Numbered from the stretch's first letter, positions 2,433 through 10,383 are shown. The stretch: DNA of 20,000 bases from Candidatus Heimdallarchaeota archaeon (GCA_018238155.1 JABCTZ010000003.1:205765-225764); one strand, 5' to 3'. Made by a program: numbers and translations. Notes: a model not told the origin generated them from the letters alone.

Positions 2433-3221
2433 ATGACTTCAAAATACCCAGATACATTTGTCAAAATAATTAAGGAACATAAATTAAAAGGTGGAGTATT
2501 ATTACAATGTTTTCCCGGGCAAGGGTTAGTAGGACGTATGGCAGGAATGCATTTAATTGATTATTTCGATGTAAAAGAATCAGCAAAAATATTTTCAAGT
2601 TATTTTCCACATCTAGTAATCTTCCAAGGAAATTTAGGTAAATTGATTCATGCAGAACTTTATGCAATAGAAGATTCCAATCCACCAATTCTTGTACTCA
2701 CGGGAGAAAGCCAACCACAAGAAGGACCTGATGGAATGTTTAGAGTAATAAATGCAACATTAGATTTAGCTCAAGACTGGGGGATCGAAACGGTAATTGC
2801 CATAGGTGGTTTTAGACCTGCTGATGTAAAAACAACTCCAGATACAACAGCCTTTGCTTTCACTGAGGACGACGCTCAAAGTATTAAGGATTGGGGTATC
2901 AAATTATTCACTGAAGGAAGAGTAAGTGGTGCAGTTGGTGTTCTAACCGCTCTTGCTGCAGAACGAGGGATGAAATCATTTGGATTAATGGGTAAAGTAA
3001 ATCTAAGTGATAATAATTCAATGTCTTTTGGAGTGGATCCAAATGCAGCAAAAAATGTTTTAAAAGCTATTATGAAAATGACTGGAATCAAATTAGACCT
3101 TTCTAAAATGGATAAAATGATAAAGGAAATAGAGCAAACTGAAGCTAGTGCAATGAAAGTGATGGATGATATGCGTAAAACAGGTCCTGGTAAGAAAGAT
3201 GCAAAATCCTTTATGATTTAA
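2433..3221 (+). CDS. PAC2 family protein (proteasome assembly chaperone-like / ATP-grasp-like COG2047 type)
   Basis: The ORF track begins at 2283, but the likely start is ATG 2433 (MTSKYPDTFVKII...). LLQCFPGQGLVGRMAGMHLIDYF, ILVLTGESQP, GIETVIAIGGFRP and VSGAVGVLTALAAERGMKSFGLMG are PAC2 motifs. The preceding 50 codons look like translated intergenic sequence. Confidence 0.85.
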   Translation: MTSKYPDTFVKIIKEHKLKGGVLLQCFPGQGLVGRMAGMHLIDYFDVKESAKIFSSYFPHLVIFQGNLGKLIHAELYAIEDSNPPILVLTGESQPQEGPDGMFRVINATLDLAQDWGIETVIAIGGFRPADVKTTPDTTAFAFTEDDAQSIKDWGIKLFTEGRVSGAVGVLTALAAERGMKSFGLMGKVNLSDNNSMSFGVDPNAAKNVLKAIMKMTGIKLDLSKMDKMIKEIEQTEASAMKVMDDMRKTGPGKKDAKSFMI

Positions 3222-4245: not shown

Positions 4246-4575
4246 TTAACACCAAGTGATAACTTTCTCGTACTTGTCCATAATGATGGAAATAGATTCA
4301 TCATAATCTACTTGTTTTATGTCTGGATGAACTTTGTCTCCAGTAATCCCACGAGCTTCTAAATCTTCTTTTATTGCATATACTTCAATACCGTGAGCTG
4401 CAGCATCAGCAATGATATTCTTTCCACCTTTCCAAGCAGCTAAAGTGCTATCTTGTATTAAGAGGACGCCAACATCATGACCGTTATCCATTTGGCTTTT
4501 CGTAATATCAAGTAAAGTTCCTTGTGCAGCACAAGTATAGATACTTTTTGATGTGATATAGAGTACTTTTACCAT
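4246..4575 (-). CDS. DsrH/TusB-like sulfur relay protein
   Basis: 109 aa, DsrE-like fold pattern (VLYITSKSIYTCAAQGTLLDITKSQMDNGHDVGVLLIQDST); adjacent to DsrF- and DsrE-like genes in the same direction; ends in a terminal Cys (VITWC). Confidence 0.6.
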   Translation of the reverse strand: MVKVLYITSKSIYTCAAQGTLLDITKSQMDNGHDVGVLLIQDSTLAAWKGGKNIIADAAAHGIEVYAIKEDLEARGITGDKVHPDIKQVDYDESISIIMDKYEKVITWC

Positions 4576-4588
4576 TTATTTTATCCTC

Positions 4589-4948
4589 CTATAATGCAAT
4601 AGTTGCACATGCATCTAAGAGTAATTCACTTAGATCTGCAACAGAAATAACTTTTACTTCAAGCTTTGGGTCCAAATCTTTAATTTGGATTCCTCTCTGC
4701 TCGAGAGATTTATCTAGAGCATAAATTGGCACTTCATATCTGTGAAGAGCTTCAAGAGCGCCCATTACTGAATGATGCCCAATTCCATCGGGGTTCTGAT
4801 CTTTTATGAGATTAAAAACTCCATCATCAATGAATATAGCATCATTTTCCACATCTAAAACAAGTAATCCTTGGCCAACACGAACGCCTTCGAGGCTGTT
4901 GATTATTCCATAAGGACCCTTTCGAAAAAGAACAATTACACGATCCAT
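4589..4948 (-). CDS. DsrF/TusC-like sulfur relay protein
   Basis: 119 aa; VIVLFRKGPYGIINSLEGVRVGQGLLVLDVENDAIFIDDGVFNLIKDQNP, DsrF/TusC-type pattern. Confidence 0.75.
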   Translation of the reverse strand: MDRVIVLFRKGPYGIINSLEGVRVGQGLLVLDVENDAIFIDDGVFNLIKDQNPDGIGHHSVMGALEALHRYEVPIYALDKSLEQRGIQIKDLDPKLEVKVISVADLSELLLDACATIAL

Positions 4949-4961
4949 TCTTCATTCACCT

Positions 4962-5336
4962 CTAAGCTGAAAAGATGAGGATTCTATCCGAATCTTCAAC
5001 ATACTCACTAAGAGCACCAAGACCATCGAAGCTACTTCCTTCGATAATCTTATCTTGACCCATTGTTCCACGATATTCAGCACAAATTGGACAAGCAACC
5101 ACAGGAATACCTGCTTCAACAAGTTCCTTAAATAATTCAGAAATATTTCTATCTCGATCATCAGATGGCTTAATATCTTTGACAACGTTGAAAACACCAT
5201 CTGTGTATAGATATATTCCTGTAACCTCATGACCTGCTTTTATTGCTGCTTTTGCAAGATGTATAACTGTATCTGAATTTTGAAAAGTATAAGGCGAGGT
5301 CATAACGAGAAATGCAATTCTACCCAAAAGTATCAC
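4962..5336 (-). CDS. DsrE/TusD-like sulfur relay protein
   Basis: 124 aa; AFLVMTSPYTFQNSDTVIHLAKAAIKAGHEVTGIYLYTDGVFNV and VPVVACPICAEYRG with the conserved sulfur-acceptor Cys region. Confidence 0.8.
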   Translation of the reverse strand: MILLGRIAFLVMTSPYTFQNSDTVIHLAKAAIKAGHEVTGIYLYTDGVFNVVKDIKPSDDRDRNISELFKELVEAGIPVVACPICAEYRGTMGQDKIIEGSSFDGLGALSEYVEDSDRILIFSA

Positions 5337-5498
5337 CTAACATATCTAATTCTAGTAAATTAATAAATTTGTTAAGAATAATGGTTTAAAAAGTATACGC
5401 ACGGGACGGCTCTTCTACTTAAGAAAATATACCCCCAACTTTATTTAAATTCTCGTTATTTCAAACTTAGATAATAATTGACTGTTTTTGTGATAAAA

Positions 5499-5921
5499 AT
5501 GTCTGACAGTAAAAAAAGTATGTCCATTATAGTCCATTCTGGTACTCTGGACAAAGCTTATCCTCCCTTGATGCTTGCTGTAGCTGCAGCTGCATCTGAT
5601 ATGCATGTTGATTTATTCTTTACTTTCTGGGGTTTACCTCTAATCAAGAAAAACGGTTTGAAAAAAGCCAAACTCCCAGGACTGATGCGTTTCGGAACCT
5701 TTATGATGAGACGCCGAATAAAGAAAGTAGGTATCGCAAAATTGCAAGAGTTACTTGAAGCTGCTGTTGAAACAGGCAATTTGAATATTTATGCTTGTAC
5801 TGCTACAATGGACTTGATGATGATCAAAAAAGAACAATTAATTCCTGAAGTAGATGGGTTCATAGGTGCCGCAGGTTTCATGGACATAGCTGTTGATGCT
5901 GATATTCATTTGTTCATATAA
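5499..5921 (+). CDS. DsrE/DsrF/DrsH-like family protein (DsrE2-like peroxiredoxin family type)
   Basis: MSDSKKSMSIIVHSGTLDKAYPPLMLAVAAAASDMHVDLFFTFWGLPLI...LPGLMRFGTFMMRRR...LQELLEAAVETGNLNIYACTATMDLMMI; track start 5478 is TTG, ATG 5499 is more likely. Confidence 0.85.
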   Translation: MSDSKKSMSIIVHSGTLDKAYPPLMLAVAAAASDMHVDLFFTFWGLPLIKKNGLKKAKLPGLMRFGTFMMRRRIKKVGIAKLQELLEAAVETGNLNIYACTATMDLMMIKKEQLIPEVDGFIGAAGFMDIAVDADIHLFI

Positions 5922-5937
5922 ATAAAGGAGAAATTAA

Positions 5938-6180
5938 ATGACTGATATTCCAACTTCTGATAAACTTTTAGATGCACGTGGATTACAATGTCCAATGCCT
6001 ATTTTGAAAGCAAAGAAAGAAATAGTAAAACTTGAAATAGGACAAATACTCGAGATATATTCAAATGATGAGGGATCAAAAGAAGATTTCCCACGATGGG
6101 CAAGAAGAACAGGTCATGAAATGCTTGGTATTTTCGATGAAGCCGATTATGCTCGGTATTTTGTAAAACGTCTGGTCTAA
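5938..6180 (+). CDS. tusA: TusA/SirA family sulfur carrier protein
   Basis: 80 aa; LLDARGLQCPMPILKAKKEIVKLEIGQILEIYSNDEGSKEDFPRWARRTGHEML with the CPxP catalytic motif. Confidence 0.92.
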   Translation: MTDIPTSDKLLDARGLQCPMPILKAKKEIVKLEIGQILEIYSNDEGSKEDFPRWARRTGHEMLGIFDEADYARYFVKRLV

Positions 6181-6294
6181 TCCAAGACCTTCCGTTATTT
6201 TTTTAAGTAAGTTTTTTTTAGTTTCAGATATTCTAAAAATAACAGTTTTTAGATTAATGGAATCAATCGTTTGTATTCCGTAAAAACGGCAAAC

Positions 6295-6302
6295 TTTAAA
6301 AA
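6295..6302 (+). promoter_or_regulatory. Putative TATA/box A of the permuted 5S rRNA gene
   Basis: TTTAAAAA at 6295-6302; expected start 24-27 nt downstream (about 6325) coincides with the first base of the flanking stem at 6327. Confidence 0.5.
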
Positions 6303-6326
6303 CCAAAAGGCAAAACGATTGAATCA

Positions 6327-6483
6327 CGCAAAAACTCATCACCGGAAGTTAAGCCTTCATACGTAGTGATAATTACTGATCTGAGAGATCGTTCGGGAAC
6401 ATCATTAAGCTGCGTTGCGACGCGGTCAAAGCTGGAGGGCAACACCCGGACCCGTCCGATCCCGGAAATGGTGAGTTTTGGCG
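6327..6483 (+). rRNA. Circularly permuted 5S rRNA gene (including flanking closing stem; 5S-like core about 6342-6468)
   Basis: 3' domain first: CCGGAAGTTAAGCCTTCATACGTAGTGATAATTACTGATCTGAGAGATCGTTCGGGAACATCATTAAGCTGCGT (6342-6415). TGCG tetraloop at 6416-6419. Then 5' domain: ACGCGGTCAAAGCTGGAGGGCAACACCCGGACCCGTCCGATCCCGG (6420-6465). Helix I: 6410-6415 with 6420-6425. Helix II: 6433-6438 with 6354-6359. Helix III CCGG (6446-6449) with CCGG (6462-6465). Helix V/IV base: 6364-6370 with 6401-6407. Apical hairpin GATCT-GAG-AGATC at 6378-6390. Conserved archaeal TACTG...CGGGAA loop E-type sequences are present. Confidence 0.88.
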
Positions 6484-6503
6484 ACTAATTGTACCAGAAA
6501 CGA

Positions 6504-6515
6504 TTCTTTCTTATT
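6504..6515 (+). terminator. T-rich tract downstream of the permuted 5S
   Basis: TTCTTTCTTATT pyrimidine/T-rich stretch about 20 nt after the flanking stem; archaeal T-tract termination is plausible. Confidence 0.35.
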
Positions 6516-6584
6516 ATAATTACCTCAAAATCATTTGAATTATAGTTAATTTTTTTTAAATAAAAGAAATAATAAAAGATTAGC

Positions 6585-6941
6585 TTATTCTAGCTTATCT
6601 TCTACATCAAAAGCCATTTTTCCAGCTTCAACAGTTATAAAACTGAAACTCAATGTATGTGTTCCTGAAGATAAAGAACCTTTGATTTTAAAAGTAAAAG
6701 TATCTCCCTTTGTTAATTTGAAGGGATTTTCCTTGGAAATTTCTGCTACTGCTATTTCTTGTTCTTTAACAAAAATGTTAATTGTGTTCAAATTTAATTC
6801 TTGACCATCAATTTTAAGATATTCAACTTTTTTAACAGTGCCAGGGTATAAATTATTCCGTAATTGAAAGGAATATTCTTCTCCTTCTTGAGCTAAGCTG
6901 CCTTGAACATACAATTTCTTTAACATCGCTTTTGGAATCAT
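6585..6941 (-). CDS. Small beta-sandwich-like protein, possible DUF6379/C-glycoside deglycosidase beta-subunit relative
   Basis: 118 aa; MIPKAMLKKLYVQGSLAQEGEEYSFQLRNNLYPGTVKKVEYLKIDGQELN...VKEQEIAVAEI...KLTKGDTFTFKIKGSLSSGTHTLSFSF resembles that family's general layout. Assignment is from recalled motif pattern only. Confidence 0.4.
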   Translation of the reverse strand: MIPKAMLKKLYVQGSLAQEGEEYSFQLRNNLYPGTVKKVEYLKIDGQELNLNTINIFVKEQEIAVAEISKENPFKLTKGDTFTFKIKGSLSSGTHTLSFSFITVEAGKMAFDVEDKLE

Positions 6942-7091: not shown

Positions 7092-8117
7092 ATGAGACAA
7101 ATGCAGACATTTATTGTTCTTCTATTAATAGTATCATTACAAACTAATACAGAGTTTATAGACAATGTTACATCTCATACTGGCGAAAATAACCTAAAAG
7201 AGATTAATAATGGGACAATAAATGTTGTAGCTTCGATTTCAATTGTGGCTGATTTTAGCAATCAAATTGGCGAGGGAATTTTTACTGTAGAAAGTATTGT
7301 GTCTGGGAATGAAAATCCACATGTCTATGAACCATCTCCACATGAAATAGAAAAGGTCGCACAAGCAGATCTTTTTGTGAGATTAGGATTAGAAGGATTA
7401 GAGCCATGGGTTCAATCTGTTTTGGATGTAAACCCTGGAATAAATGTTTTAGAATTAGTAAATTCATCAATGATAGAATTCGATGATGTAATTAATTCTA
7501 ATAATCCTCATGTTTGGATGGATCCAAATAATGTTAAAATAATGATTGAAGAAATTTATCAAAGTGTCTCATTATTAGATCCAACAAATATTGCAACTTA
7601 TGAATCTAATAGAGACTCTTATCTCAATGAACTTGATTTATTACTTATTCGAATTGATCAAGCAAAGGGCGTTTTTAGTGGAACAAAGGTAGTTGTTCAT
7701 CATCCCTCATTCAAATATTTCTTTGATTTACTCGGAATTATTCGAATTGGGGCAATTGAAGAACAAGATGGTGTTGAACCTTCTCCTGATCATATACAAG
7801 AAATAATTTCTGCTATTGAATTAGAAAATGTCACTTTAATAATAAATCAACCTCAATTGGATGATGAAACTGTAAATCAAATTGCAAGAGATACAGAAAT
7901 ACAGATTGTTAATTTAACTCCCTTGCTAGGAGTTTATAGTTTAGTTGATTATATTTCTATGATTGACTACAACATATTGGCACTCAAGAATCCTTTCAAT
8001 CCATCTTCATCATTCTTACCATGGACAACTTGGTTACTAATAGGGTTTGCCGGAACAATACTTGTAGCATTAGGTGTTGCAATAATAATTGTAAGAAGTA
8101 AAAATCCAAGAAAATAA
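7092..8117 (+). CDS. Zn/Mn-type ABC transporter substrate-binding protein (TroA/ZnuA family), C-terminally membrane anchored
   Basis: 341 aa; NPHVYEPSPHEIEKVAQADLFVRLG, NPHVWMDPNNVKIM, VVVHHPSFKYFFDLLGI metal-ligand His motifs; C-terminal TM WLLIGFAGTILVALGVAIIIV. Confidence 0.93.
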   Translation: MRQMQTFIVLLLIVSLQTNTEFIDNVTSHTGENNLKEINNGTINVVASISIVADFSNQIGEGIFTVESIVSGNENPHVYEPSPHEIEKVAQADLFVRLGLEGLEPWVQSVLDVNPGINVLELVNSSMIEFDDVINSNNPHVWMDPNNVKIMIEEIYQSVSLLDPTNIATYESNRDSYLNELDLLLIRIDQAKGVFSGTKVVVHHPSFKYFFDLLGIIRIGAIEEQDGVEPSPDHIQEIISAIELENVTLIINQPQLDDETVNQIARDTEIQIVNLTPLLGVYSLVDYISMIDYNILALKNPFNPSSSFLPWTTWLLIGFAGTILVALGVAIIIVRSKNPRK

Positions 8118-8133
8118 AGGGCTGGTTATCAAA

Positions 8134-8568
8134 TTGAAACGTAGAATAGATTTGGAAGAAAAGTTGTTAGATTTCTTGCATTCGTGGCTTCGTCCAATAC
8201 GAATTGGAGATTTAAAGAAAGAATTAGAGAAAGAACATATTGCCATCCCTCATTCATCTATTAATTCAATAATCAAGAGGTTGGTGGATGATAAGTTAAT
8301 TACTTGGCAAAAATACGGTCCAATTTCTTTAACTCAGAAAGGACAACAACAAGCAGCTCATAAACAAAGACATTTTCATTTATTGATAATGTTCTTTATG
8401 AATACTCTCCATTTGTCACATCGGGAAGCAAAAAAAGAGAGTCATGTAATAGCAAGTGTCATATCATGCAATATGATCGGTCAAATTAGCAGAGAGTTAA
8501 ATAACCCTTTGAAGTGTCATTGCAATGAAACCATTCCTAGAGTGGAGCAATGCACAGTAAGAAACTAA
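8134..8568 (+). CDS. DtxR/MntR-like metal-dependent transcriptional regulator
   Basis: 144 aa; N-terminal wHTH (LLDFLHSWLRPIRIGDLKKEL...SINSIIKRLVDDKLITWQKYGPISLTQKGQQQA), then KQRHFHLLIMFFMNTLHLSHREAKKESHVIASVISCNMIGQISRELNNPLKCHCNETIP, matching DtxR dimerization-domain layout. Sits inside the ABC operon. Confidence 0.75.
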   Translation: MKRRIDLEEKLLDFLHSWLRPIRIGDLKKELEKEHIAIPHSSINSIIKRLVDDKLITWQKYGPISLTQKGQQQAAHKQRHFHLLIMFFMNTLHLSHREAKKESHVIASVISCNMIGQISRELNNPLKCHCNETIPRVEQCTVRN

Positions 8569-8584
8569 TCAAGGTGAGTAAACA

Positions 8585-9595
8585 ATGAGCGTTTTACTAG
8601 AATTCTTCCAAGCATTTCAATATCCATTTATGCAAAGAGCATTTGTATCCGCATTTGTGATTGGCATCGTTTGTTCAATTATTGGTGTTTTTGTTCTCTT
8701 GAGAGGGCTAATCTTCCTAGGGCAAGCAATTGCTCATTCTGCATTTGCAGGTGCGGCATTAGCTATTCTTACAGGCATCGATCCGATATTAACAATAATT
8801 GGTTTTTCAGTTGTATCTGCAATTGGCATTGGTTATGTCAATCAAAAGAAATTAATGAATAGTGAGGTGATAATTGGCATTGTCTTTGCATTCTTTATGG
8901 CGTTGGCAATACTTTTCATTGGTTTACATGGAGAATATAGTTCAGATATCAATTCAATCCTTTTTGGTAATATATTACTCGTTGACCTTGCAGATATGCT
9001 TCTTCTAATAGTTTTTTCTGTTGTTATTCTTCTGATAGTTTTTGCAATCAAAAAGGAGTTATATTTTATGACGTTTGACTCTCAACAAGCACAAGTTTCA
9101 GGTGTGCCTGTTAAATTCCTTTCCTATCTCTTCCTTATTGCAGTTTCTTTAACAATTTCAGTTTCACTAAAAGCGATCGGAGCAATTTTGGTTTTTGCTA
9201 TGATTGTTACTCCTGCGGCAGCAGCATATCAATGGACTTTCAAAATTAATACTATGATTATACTCTCAGCTATCTTTGGGGTTTTCTCAGCTATCTTTGG
9301 TTTATTCTTTTCATATATTTTGGATTTGCCTTCAGGTTCAACTATTGTTATATTAATAACATTGATCTTTGTTATCTCGTTTATTGCTTCTCCAAAAAGA
9401 AGAGCTTCTAAAAAAGATCTCCTGGAATGTCCTTTCTGCAAAGATTATCTTCCTGGACCTTGTGAGGATTGTAATGGTGATTGTGATTTGGGAATACCTC
9501 ATACACATGAAGAAGAACGAATTATAATAAGTACAAAACATTTACCTGATAAGGATCCAACTACACACAACCATATGGAGGAGGAAACAAAGTAA
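8585..9595 (+). CDS. Zn/Mn-type ABC transporter permease (ZnuB/MntB family) with Cys/His-rich C-terminal tail
   Basis: 336 aa, multi-TM; FLLGQAIAHSAFAGAALAIL-type motif (FLGQAIAHSAFAGAALAILTG), AIGAILVFAMIVTPAAAAYQ; tail ECPFCKDYLPGPCEDCNGDCDLGIPHTHEE... Confidence 0.93.
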   Translation: MSVLLEFFQAFQYPFMQRAFVSAFVIGIVCSIIGVFVLLRGLIFLGQAIAHSAFAGAALAILTGIDPILTIIGFSVVSAIGIGYVNQKKLMNSEVIIGIVFAFFMALAILFIGLHGEYSSDINSILFGNILLVDLADMLLLIVFSVVILLIVFAIKKELYFMTFDSQQAQVSGVPVKFLSYLFLIAVSLTISVSLKAIGAILVFAMIVTPAAAAYQWTFKINTMIILSAIFGVFSAIFGLFFSYILDLPSGSTIVILITLIFVISFIASPKRRASKKDLLECPFCKDYLPGPCEDCNGDCDLGIPHTHEEERIIISTKHLPDKDPTTHNHMEEETK

Positions 9596-10383
9596 TGACT
9601 AGTAAGGAAATTAATAAAGTGAATAATTCTACTGTTGCTTCTTCTAGCAAAACTCCAAAGCCAATTATTTGTGTTCATGATGTTGTTGTTGCTTATCAAT
9701 CAAATGTTGCGATATTTGATATTAATCTCGACATCTTCAGGAACGAGTTTGTTGGTATTTGTGGTCCAAATGGTTCTGGGAAAAGTACATTATTAAAAAG
9801 TATTATTGGCGCTGTTGACCCGCTAAAAGGAACAGTCAAGATTTTAGGTGAAGATATTTTAAAGAAAGGAAGTCTACATGGACTAAGGAAAAAATTTGGT
9901 TACCTTCCTCAAAAAACTGAAATTGATCGTAACTTTCCTGCATTAGTAAAAGATGTTGTAGGGATGGGACTCTATTCAACCGTTGGTCTCTTTAGAAGTT
10001 TAAACAAAAAAGATTATGAAAGAATCGATCGAGCACTTGAAATTGTGGAGTTGGATCAGTTCAAAGATAGACCAATAGGGCATCTATCTGGCGGACAACA
10101 ACAGAAGGTAATGATTGCCAGAGGAATTGTTAATGAACCCGAAATTCTCTTTTTGGACGAACCCACCTCGGCTCTAGATTTCAAGGTTGCAAGAAATATT
10201 ATGACCCTTATACGGAAGATTCACGAAGAAACAGAACTAACAATTATCTTGGTAAGTCACGATATTGACTTTATCAAGAATAATTGTTCTAGAGCAGTTT
10301 GTATGAATAGGCGGATTGTTTGGGAAGGAAATCCAAAAGATGAAGAATTTGATGAAGTGATAAACAGAGTTTTCCTAAAATAG
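9595..10383 (+). CDS. Zn/Mn-type ABC transporter ATP-binding protein (ZnuC family)
   Basis: 262 aa; Walker A GPNGSGKST, signature LSGGQQQKVMIARG, Walker B ILFLDEP; start overlaps the permease stop (TAATG). Confidence 0.95.
   Translation: MTSKEINKVNNSTVASSSKTPKPIICVHDVVVAYQSNVAIFDINLDIFRNEFVGICGPNGSGKSTLLKSIIGAVDPLKGTVKILGEDILKKGSLHGLRKKFGYLPQKTEIDRNFPALVKDVVGMGLYSTVGLFRSLNKKDYERIDRALEIVELDQFKDRPIGHLSGGQQQKVMIARGIVNEPEILFLDEPTSALDFKVARNIMTLIRKIHEETELTIILVSHDIDFIKNNCSRAVCMNRRIVWEGNPKDEEFDEVINRVFLK

Follow-up and report, generated by a model that had tools for sequence, protein, structure and literature searches.

The genomic stretch analysed here (20,000 nt of a Candidatus Heimdallarchaeota archaeon, GCA_018238155.1 JABCTZ010000003.1:205765-225764; hereafter the window) contains a 5S ribosomal RNA gene, the two halves of which are encoded in inverted order, between a sulfur-relay gene cluster and a gene for a 118-aa protein of family PF25653 (Table 1). 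The permuted gene is flanked by two complementary 15-nt segments and preceded by a BRE/TATA promoter element. Here, we describe the structure, distribution and covariation of this gene, and consider how its transcript might be matured.

A permuted 5S rRNA gene at a conserved locus

No Rfam family, 5S-related or other, reaches its gathering score in the window. At a relaxed threshold, however, RF00001 (5S rRNA) matches twice, with 6303-6418 aligning to the 3′ half of the model (GAAGUUAAG, helix II 3′ strand, helices V and IV, helix I 3′ strand) and 6422-6531 aligning to the 5′ half (helix I 5′ strand, loop A, helices II and III, loop C), at 17.5 and 16.6 bits against a gathering score of 38, as expected for a permuted order. 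Re-ordering the halves gives a colinear alignment to canonical archaeal 5S, with 76-82 of 116 positions identical, against 48-64 as encoded. Single-sequence folding of the re-ordered 5S was uninformative (z = -0.96), but RNAalifold, given only the alignment of orthologues, recovers helices I-V. Helix I (GCUGCGU/ACGCGGU), which in canonical 5S pairs the 5′ and 3′ termini, is here closed by a tetraloop in every sequence. The break falls between CCGG-AA and GU, which aligns with E. coli C49-A50-G51-A52-A53-G54-U55, and the hexamer CCGGAA is present at both ends.

Table 1 Features at the permuted 5S locus. Coordinates are those of the window.
Feature	Coordinates	Strand	Description
dsrE/dsrF/dsrH-like plus tusA cluster	4246-6180		Sulfur-relay cluster
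88-aa ORF	6076-6342	-	Overlaps the tusA 3′ end, the 5S promoter and the 5′ arm; almost certainly not a gene
A-rich element	6274-6292		TTCCGTAAAAACGGCAA, flanked by CC...GG; directly upstream of the BRE/TATA box
BRE/TATA promoter element	6291-6302	+	AAACTTTAAAAA; TATA box TTTAAAAA at 6295-6302
5′ arm of the new stem	6327-6341	+	CGCAAAAACTCATCA; outer helix h of the proposed hBH motif
5′ copy of CCGGAA	6342-6347	+	CYGGAA in relatives; CCGG could form the central 4-bp helix with 6462-6465; predicted cut after A6347
3′ half of 5S	6348-6415	+	Helix III proximal GU (6348-49), loop B UAAG, helix II 3′ strand (6354-58), helix V (6364-70 with 6401-07), loop E, helix IV with GNRA loop D (6376-97), helix I 3′ strand (6409-15)
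Tetraloop closing helix I	6416-6419	+	UGCG; UGCG, CUCG, UGUG, CGCG, UUCG or AAUG in relatives
5′ half of 5S	6420-6467	+	Helix I 5′ strand (6420-26), loop A CAAA, helix II 5′ strand (6431-38), helix III 5′ strand (6442-49), loop C (6450-61), helix III 3′ strand CCGG (6462-65), AA (6466-67)
AAA	6466-6468	+	3 unpaired nt between CCGG and the 3′ arm; proposed bulge B; predicted cut after A6467
3′ arm of the new stem	6469-6483	+	TGGTGAGTTTTGGCG
Predicted excised and ligated product	6348-6467	+	120-nt circle with predicted junction ...GAUCCCGGAA/GUUAAGCC...; inferred, not observed
118-aa protein gene (PF25653)	6585-6941	-	
znuA/metal-dependent repressor/ABC-3 permease/ABC ATPase operon	7092-10383		

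The order tusA/5S/118-aa gene is kept in every related contig that reaches both genes, and all carry the permuted gene except two damaged copies described below. An identical tusA-like protein is encoded on contigs of two NCBI MAGs, and homologues of the 118-aa protein are labelled Heimdallarchaeota or Asgard. A search pattern inside the 3′ half, which would match either gene order, hit 10 GTDB species representatives, all of which are permuted; eight are named Heimdallarchaeota, one Promethearchaeati and one Bathyarchaeia. A 256-kb contig (DATKZI010000026.1) labelled Candidatus Bathyarchaeia carries the Heimdall-type gene with its promoter, so that either the bin is mislabelled or the gene occurs outside Heimdallarchaeota. 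A covariance model built from the permuted genes finds exactly one copy per locus in 238 kb of sequence, at 184-199 bits. Relatives keep the dsrE/tusA cluster, the 5S gene and the 118-aa gene together; the znu operon follows in L001-L008 (L numbers denote the individual loci compared), but in L039 and L042-L044 a GtrA/glycosyltransferase gene lies next to the 118-aa gene instead.

A loop-C pattern applied to metagenomes hit nine further permuted genes and 11 canonical ones, but no contig with a Heimdall-type 5S body in canonical order. Of the 11 canonical genes, the six loci scanned score 42-97 bits with RF00001, whereas the permuted loci score nothing at gathering threshold. Where neighbouring proteins carried names, they place these contigs in Thermoprotei (Ignisphaera and Fervidicoccaceae/Desulfurococcales types); the proteins looked up from two of them (L025 and L028) carried no name. 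The canonical genes are therefore not sister lineages, and they say nothing about when the permutation arose. They share with the Heimdall permuted gene the 23-nt loop-C stretch CCCGGACUCGU(C/U)CGAUCCCGGAA, followed by GUUAAGCC, and their loop C is one nucleotide shorter than the Rfam consensus.

The core AAACTTTAAA of the promoter element is identical in all orthologues with upstream sequence, whereas the last two positions of the box vary. The box ends 21-24 nt before the first stem base, which, by the usual archaeal spacing, would place the transcription start at about 6325-6329, at the foot of the stem. In most relatives a run of four or more T begins 1-12 nt after the 3′ arm, and there is no room for a long leader or trailer; the window has no T4 run after the arm, only the T-rich stretch 6504-6517. 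The A-rich element upstream of the box is kept in most orthologues (CCGTAAAAACGG, CCATAAAAACGG, CCCAAAAAGAGGG, CCTTAAAAGAGG) but is absent in L018, and could be a small hairpin or a regulator-binding site.

Two orthologous loci are damaged. In L008, a Heimdallarchaeota contig (JGI 3300033153/NCBI; 2925-2990, minus strand), the promoter, the 5′ arm and the 5S 3′ half are kept up to GAUCUGAGCG, after which the sequence jumps to GAGUUUUUGC of the 3′ arm, an internal deletion of about 90 nt from loop D to the 3′ arm; that organism must have a working 5S gene elsewhere. L042 (VIKM01000508.1, Asgard group archaeon, GCA_011366225.1; 2358-2706, minus strand) keeps only AAAUGGUGAGUUUCGUGCC, with AAATGGTGAGTTTCGTGCC, the 3′ arm, remaining next to the 118-aa gene. 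Everything upstream of the AAA is unrelated DNA and includes what looks like the start of a signal-peptide protein on the other strand. This break coincides with the proposed cleavage bulge, and could reflect a rearrangement, an insertion or a chimeric contig.

The new termini are joined by a covarying stem

The two arms pair at 14 of 15 positions, as noted in the preliminary description, with 13 Watson-Crick pairs, one U-G (6339/6471) and one A×G mismatch (6330/6480) (duplex -16.5 kcal/mol), and the stem appears in both the MFE and the centroid fold of 6327-6483 (z = -2.94). As a bare inverted repeat it is not remarkable in this 34% G+C window: arms of 15 nt with at least 14 pairs (G-U allowed), spanning 61-301 nt, occur 135 times, against about 82 in shuffles, and there are 31 windows (about 15 loci) with at least 13 Watson-Crick pairs, against 15 ± 6.5 in shuffles. 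Its significance comes instead from its position, abutting the two halves of the permuted 5S, and from comparison with orthologues.

In 18 distinct sequences, which align without any gap, the inner 11 bp of the stem (6331-6341 on the 5′ arm) are paired in 18 of 18, and both-side changes occur at 6331/6479 (G-C 9, A-U 8, G-U 1), 6332/6478, 6337/6473 (a C-G to G-C swap in L024) and 6341/6469 (A-U 13, G-C 5). None of 500 column shuffles reached the observed covariation for the whole structure tested, and sliding the partner by 1-3 columns drops pairing from 98.8% to 35-47%. RNAalifold predicts the same 11 bp without guidance. The outer 3-4 bp exist in two registers: the window, L003 and L018 have the A×G mismatch followed by CGC/GCG, and most others have a 1-nt bulge followed by GCA/UGC. 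Counting the outer pairs, 7 of 14 stem pairs show both-side changes, more than in any other helix of the molecule; helices V and I have 2 of 7 each, the latter a double compensatory change in the two pairs closing the tetraloop of L015, and the other helices have none and are 100% paired. This pattern fits an element constrained only to pair, although all bases of the stem core (AACUC, A, UC) and the third A of the AAA are invariant, which pairing alone does not require, in a molecule that is 92% conserved as a whole. Even without transcript data, these results point to an expressed, structured RNA under selection, with the stem as part of the transcript. The arms do not seem to be remnants of duplicated 5S flanks, as the 5′ arm compared with the loop C region, and the 3′ arm compared with the sequence after CCGGAA, show no similarity beyond chance (p = 0.49-0.96).

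These data support the preliminary description, which had proposed that the stem is absent from conventional 5S, holds the new termini together at the position of E. coli A52/A53, and could serve either as a retained arm or as a processing stem. It did not, however, recognize that the CCGGAA at both ends, the extra A6468 and the stem together have the geometry of a relaxed bulge-helix-bulge (hBH) site for the archaeal splicing endonuclease.

A candidate splicing-endonuclease site

The 5′ arm runs directly into CCGG (CYGG in relatives), whereas the 3′ CCGG is followed by exactly three A residues and then the 3′ arm. CCGG is palindromic, so that the two copies can form a 4-bp helix (C-G 18; C-G 14/U-G 4; G-C 18; G-C 18), in which the only variation is C/U at 6343, opposite G6464. 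The copy that would be discarded is thus the one that varies, and the copy that would be kept is invariant. The AAA is invariant in sequence and length in all 18 sequences, which derive from more than 25 assemblies, without a single indel in the motif. The resulting order (outer helix, 3-nt bulge on the 3′ strand, 4-bp helix, then an open strand beginning AAG) corresponds to that of an archaeal tRNA intron at position 37/38, as we derived from the positions of the anticodon stem and the splice sites: the anticodon stem runs straight into the 4-bp helix on the 5′ strand, the 3′ splice site sits in the bulge next to the stem, and each cut falls two nucleotides 3′ of the 4-bp helix. The MFE fold of 6327-6483 contains this element, and this conformer is isoenergetic with the native-like fold. 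RNAalifold, however, pairs the 5′ CYGG with 6446-6449 of the helix III 5′ strand rather than with the 3′ copy; the three CCGG tetramers are mutually complementary and the alternative folds differ by only 0-3 kcal/mol. Moreover, only the relaxed form is possible. The strict motif (hBHBh′) comprises two 3-nt bulges, a 4-bp helix and flanking helices of more than 2 bp (PMC3978253), but here U6349-A6351 cannot pair with A6459-C6461 and no h′ helix can form; after AA, the helix III proximal pairs G6348-C6443 and U6349-A6442 may form instead.

Cuts at the two predicted sites, followed by ligation of the inner piece, would give a 120-nt covalently closed 5S RNA in which helix III is restored exactly (CCCGGAA/GUUAAGCC, or more fully GAUCCCGGAA/GUUAAGCCUUC), with a length and a junction sequence that match canonical 5S. 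The stem would leave as a small ligated hairpin, and the circle would be either the mature 5S or its immediate precursor. Part of this fit is automatic, because any permutation born from a tandem duplication with overlapping ends restores the canonical sequence when one overlap is removed, and the palindrome is simply helix III. The non-trivial part is therefore the exact spacing of zero nucleotides on the 5′ strand and three on the 3′ strand.

For the machinery of such a reaction, the evidence is from the literature only. The relaxed hBH form is common in archaeal tRNAs (PMC3978253), and Asgard archaea, including Heimdallarchaeota AB_125, have the (αβ)2 EndA with the L1 loop, which is associated with broad substrate specificity in Crenarchaeota, where the enzyme carrying it (APE EndA) cleaved a relaxed hBH mini-helix (PMC5829648). 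Asgard archaea make circular 16S and 23S rRNA, EndA and RtcB were found in every archaeal genome examined in that study, and circular 23S sits in ribosomes of one isolate and is inferred for many uncultivated archaea (PMC12918454). RtcB would join the ends here as it does for tRNA introns and for pre-16S and pre-23S rRNA. None of 22 Heimdall loci holds a tRNA, so the BHB forms used by this lineage could not be read from intron-containing tRNAs nearby.

Alternative explanations

In the absence of RNA evidence, we consider it about as likely as not that the stem is the outer helix of a processing site giving a circular 5S. A retained terminal helix is possible but less likely. In that case the primary transcript of about 157-160 nt would be essentially the mature 5S, with the stem taking over the role of helix I in holding the ends together and protecting them from exonucleases, and projecting from the helix III/loop C region of the central protuberance, either in a three-way junction at the AA loop with CYGGAA as a linker or stacked on helix III with loop C as a 19-nt bulge. 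Consistent with this reading, the inferred start and the T-runs of most relatives leave a transcript that needs no trimming, the stem covaries, its core and both linkers are highly conserved as expected for a part that is kept and contacted, RNAalifold folds the whole RNA as a closed five-helix 5S plus stem without invoking processing, and 5S molecules that remain permuted in the mature RNA exist in brown-algal mitochondria (PMC4267664). On the other hand, a retained arm does not explain why a second CYGGAA is kept at exactly zero and three nucleotides from the stem; helix III and loop C are contact sites for uL18 and uL5 and lie close to 23S H84, where room for a 15-bp arm has not been shown; and the stem is the most variable helix of the molecule, unlike the rest of the 5S body.

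Processing of another kind seems unlikely. The stem might serve only folding or assembly of the precursor and be removed by a double-strand-specific or other nuclease and exonucleolytic trimming, leaving a linear permuted 5S nicked in the 3′ strand of helix III and held together by helices II and III. Leader-trailer helices are a general feature of rRNA precursors (PMC11404451) and the stem varies freely as long as it pairs, but the transcript has almost no leader or trailer to remove, and this reading gives no role to the exact CYGG/AAA spacing. It is very unlikely, although whole genomes were not scanned, that the permuted gene is a non-functional relic or a paralogue with another role while a canonical 5S serves the ribosome. 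The deletion in L008 favours such a view, but compensatory changes in helices I and V and in the stem, the conserved promoter and the conserved synteny in more than 25 assemblies, including 10 species representatives, argue against it and led us to reject a pseudogene or assembly artefact. In addition, the 3′-half pattern found only permuted genes in the GTDB representatives, and the canonical 5S genes returned by the metagenome scan came, where assignable, only from Thermoprotei. The authors of two closed Heimdallarchaeum genomes reported that no 5S gene could be predicted (PMC8813620). A permuted gene invisible to RF00001 is a candidate explanation, although those genomes were not among our pattern hits.

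Comparison with other permuted and circular RNAs

Our literature searches found no report of a permuted 5S in Archaea, and a 2023 paper's introductory list of natural circular RNA permutations cites only the organellar 5S case. That case, the mitochondrial 5S of brown algae and other stramenopiles (mtPerm-5S), also has ends outside helix I and a closed hairpin in its place, but its termini lie at the junction of the α and γ domains, it has no new closing helix and it stays permuted in the mature RNA (PMC4267664), whereas the termini here lie in helix III (β domain) and the genomic context is archaeal chromosomal. Permuted-gene maturation through a BHB has so far been proposed only for tRNA genes. 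In the permuted tRNA genes of Cyanidioschyzon merolae, other algae and Thermofilum pendens, the order is likewise 3′ half, short intervening sequence, 5′ half, the transcript termini pair to form a BHB or relaxed BHB, the splicing endonuclease and ligase are proposed to make a circular intermediate, and the junction can lie at many positions in the structure (PMC3978253). In the 5S gene the intervening sequence is only a 4-nt tetraloop and there is no RNase P or tRNase Z site to re-open it, so the circle, if formed, may be the end product.

Archaeal 16S and 23S rRNAs also carry a BHB in a long leader-trailer helix, from which EndA excision and RtcB ligation give circular rRNA, and circular 23S can be the ribosomal form (PMC12918454; PMC7758197). 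Those genes are colinear and the circle joins the natural ends, whereas here the gene itself is permuted and ligation would repair an internal helix. 5S rRNAs are stated not to be known to use this route (PMC12918454), and only minor circular 5S species, possibly degradation products, have been reported (PMC12558985). If the hBH reading is right, 5S rRNA would join the permuted tRNAs, and the archaeal habit of circularizing rRNA would extend to 5S; if instead the stem is retained, these ribosomes carry an extra 15-bp arm on the central protuberance. A further possibility, which we consider somewhat less likely than not, is that the ribosome's 5S in this clade is itself the 120-nt circle, which would make it the first permuted rRNA gene in Archaea and the first case of an organism whose functional 5S has no ends, and would explain why standard 5S models find no 5S gene in these genomes. 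Heimdallarchaeia are the archaea currently placed closest to eukaryotes, and 5S rRNA is treated as essentially constant in cellular life. MAG quality standards that ask for a 5S gene will mis-score this lineage. A closed helix I is compatible with function in another setting: in engineered E. coli 23S-cp5S, the native ends are joined by a 4-nt connector and new ends are opened in the β or γ domain (loop C or loop D), and the resulting ribosomes are active (PMC7283268), although that construct is artificial, is inserted into 23S rRNA and has no closing stem.
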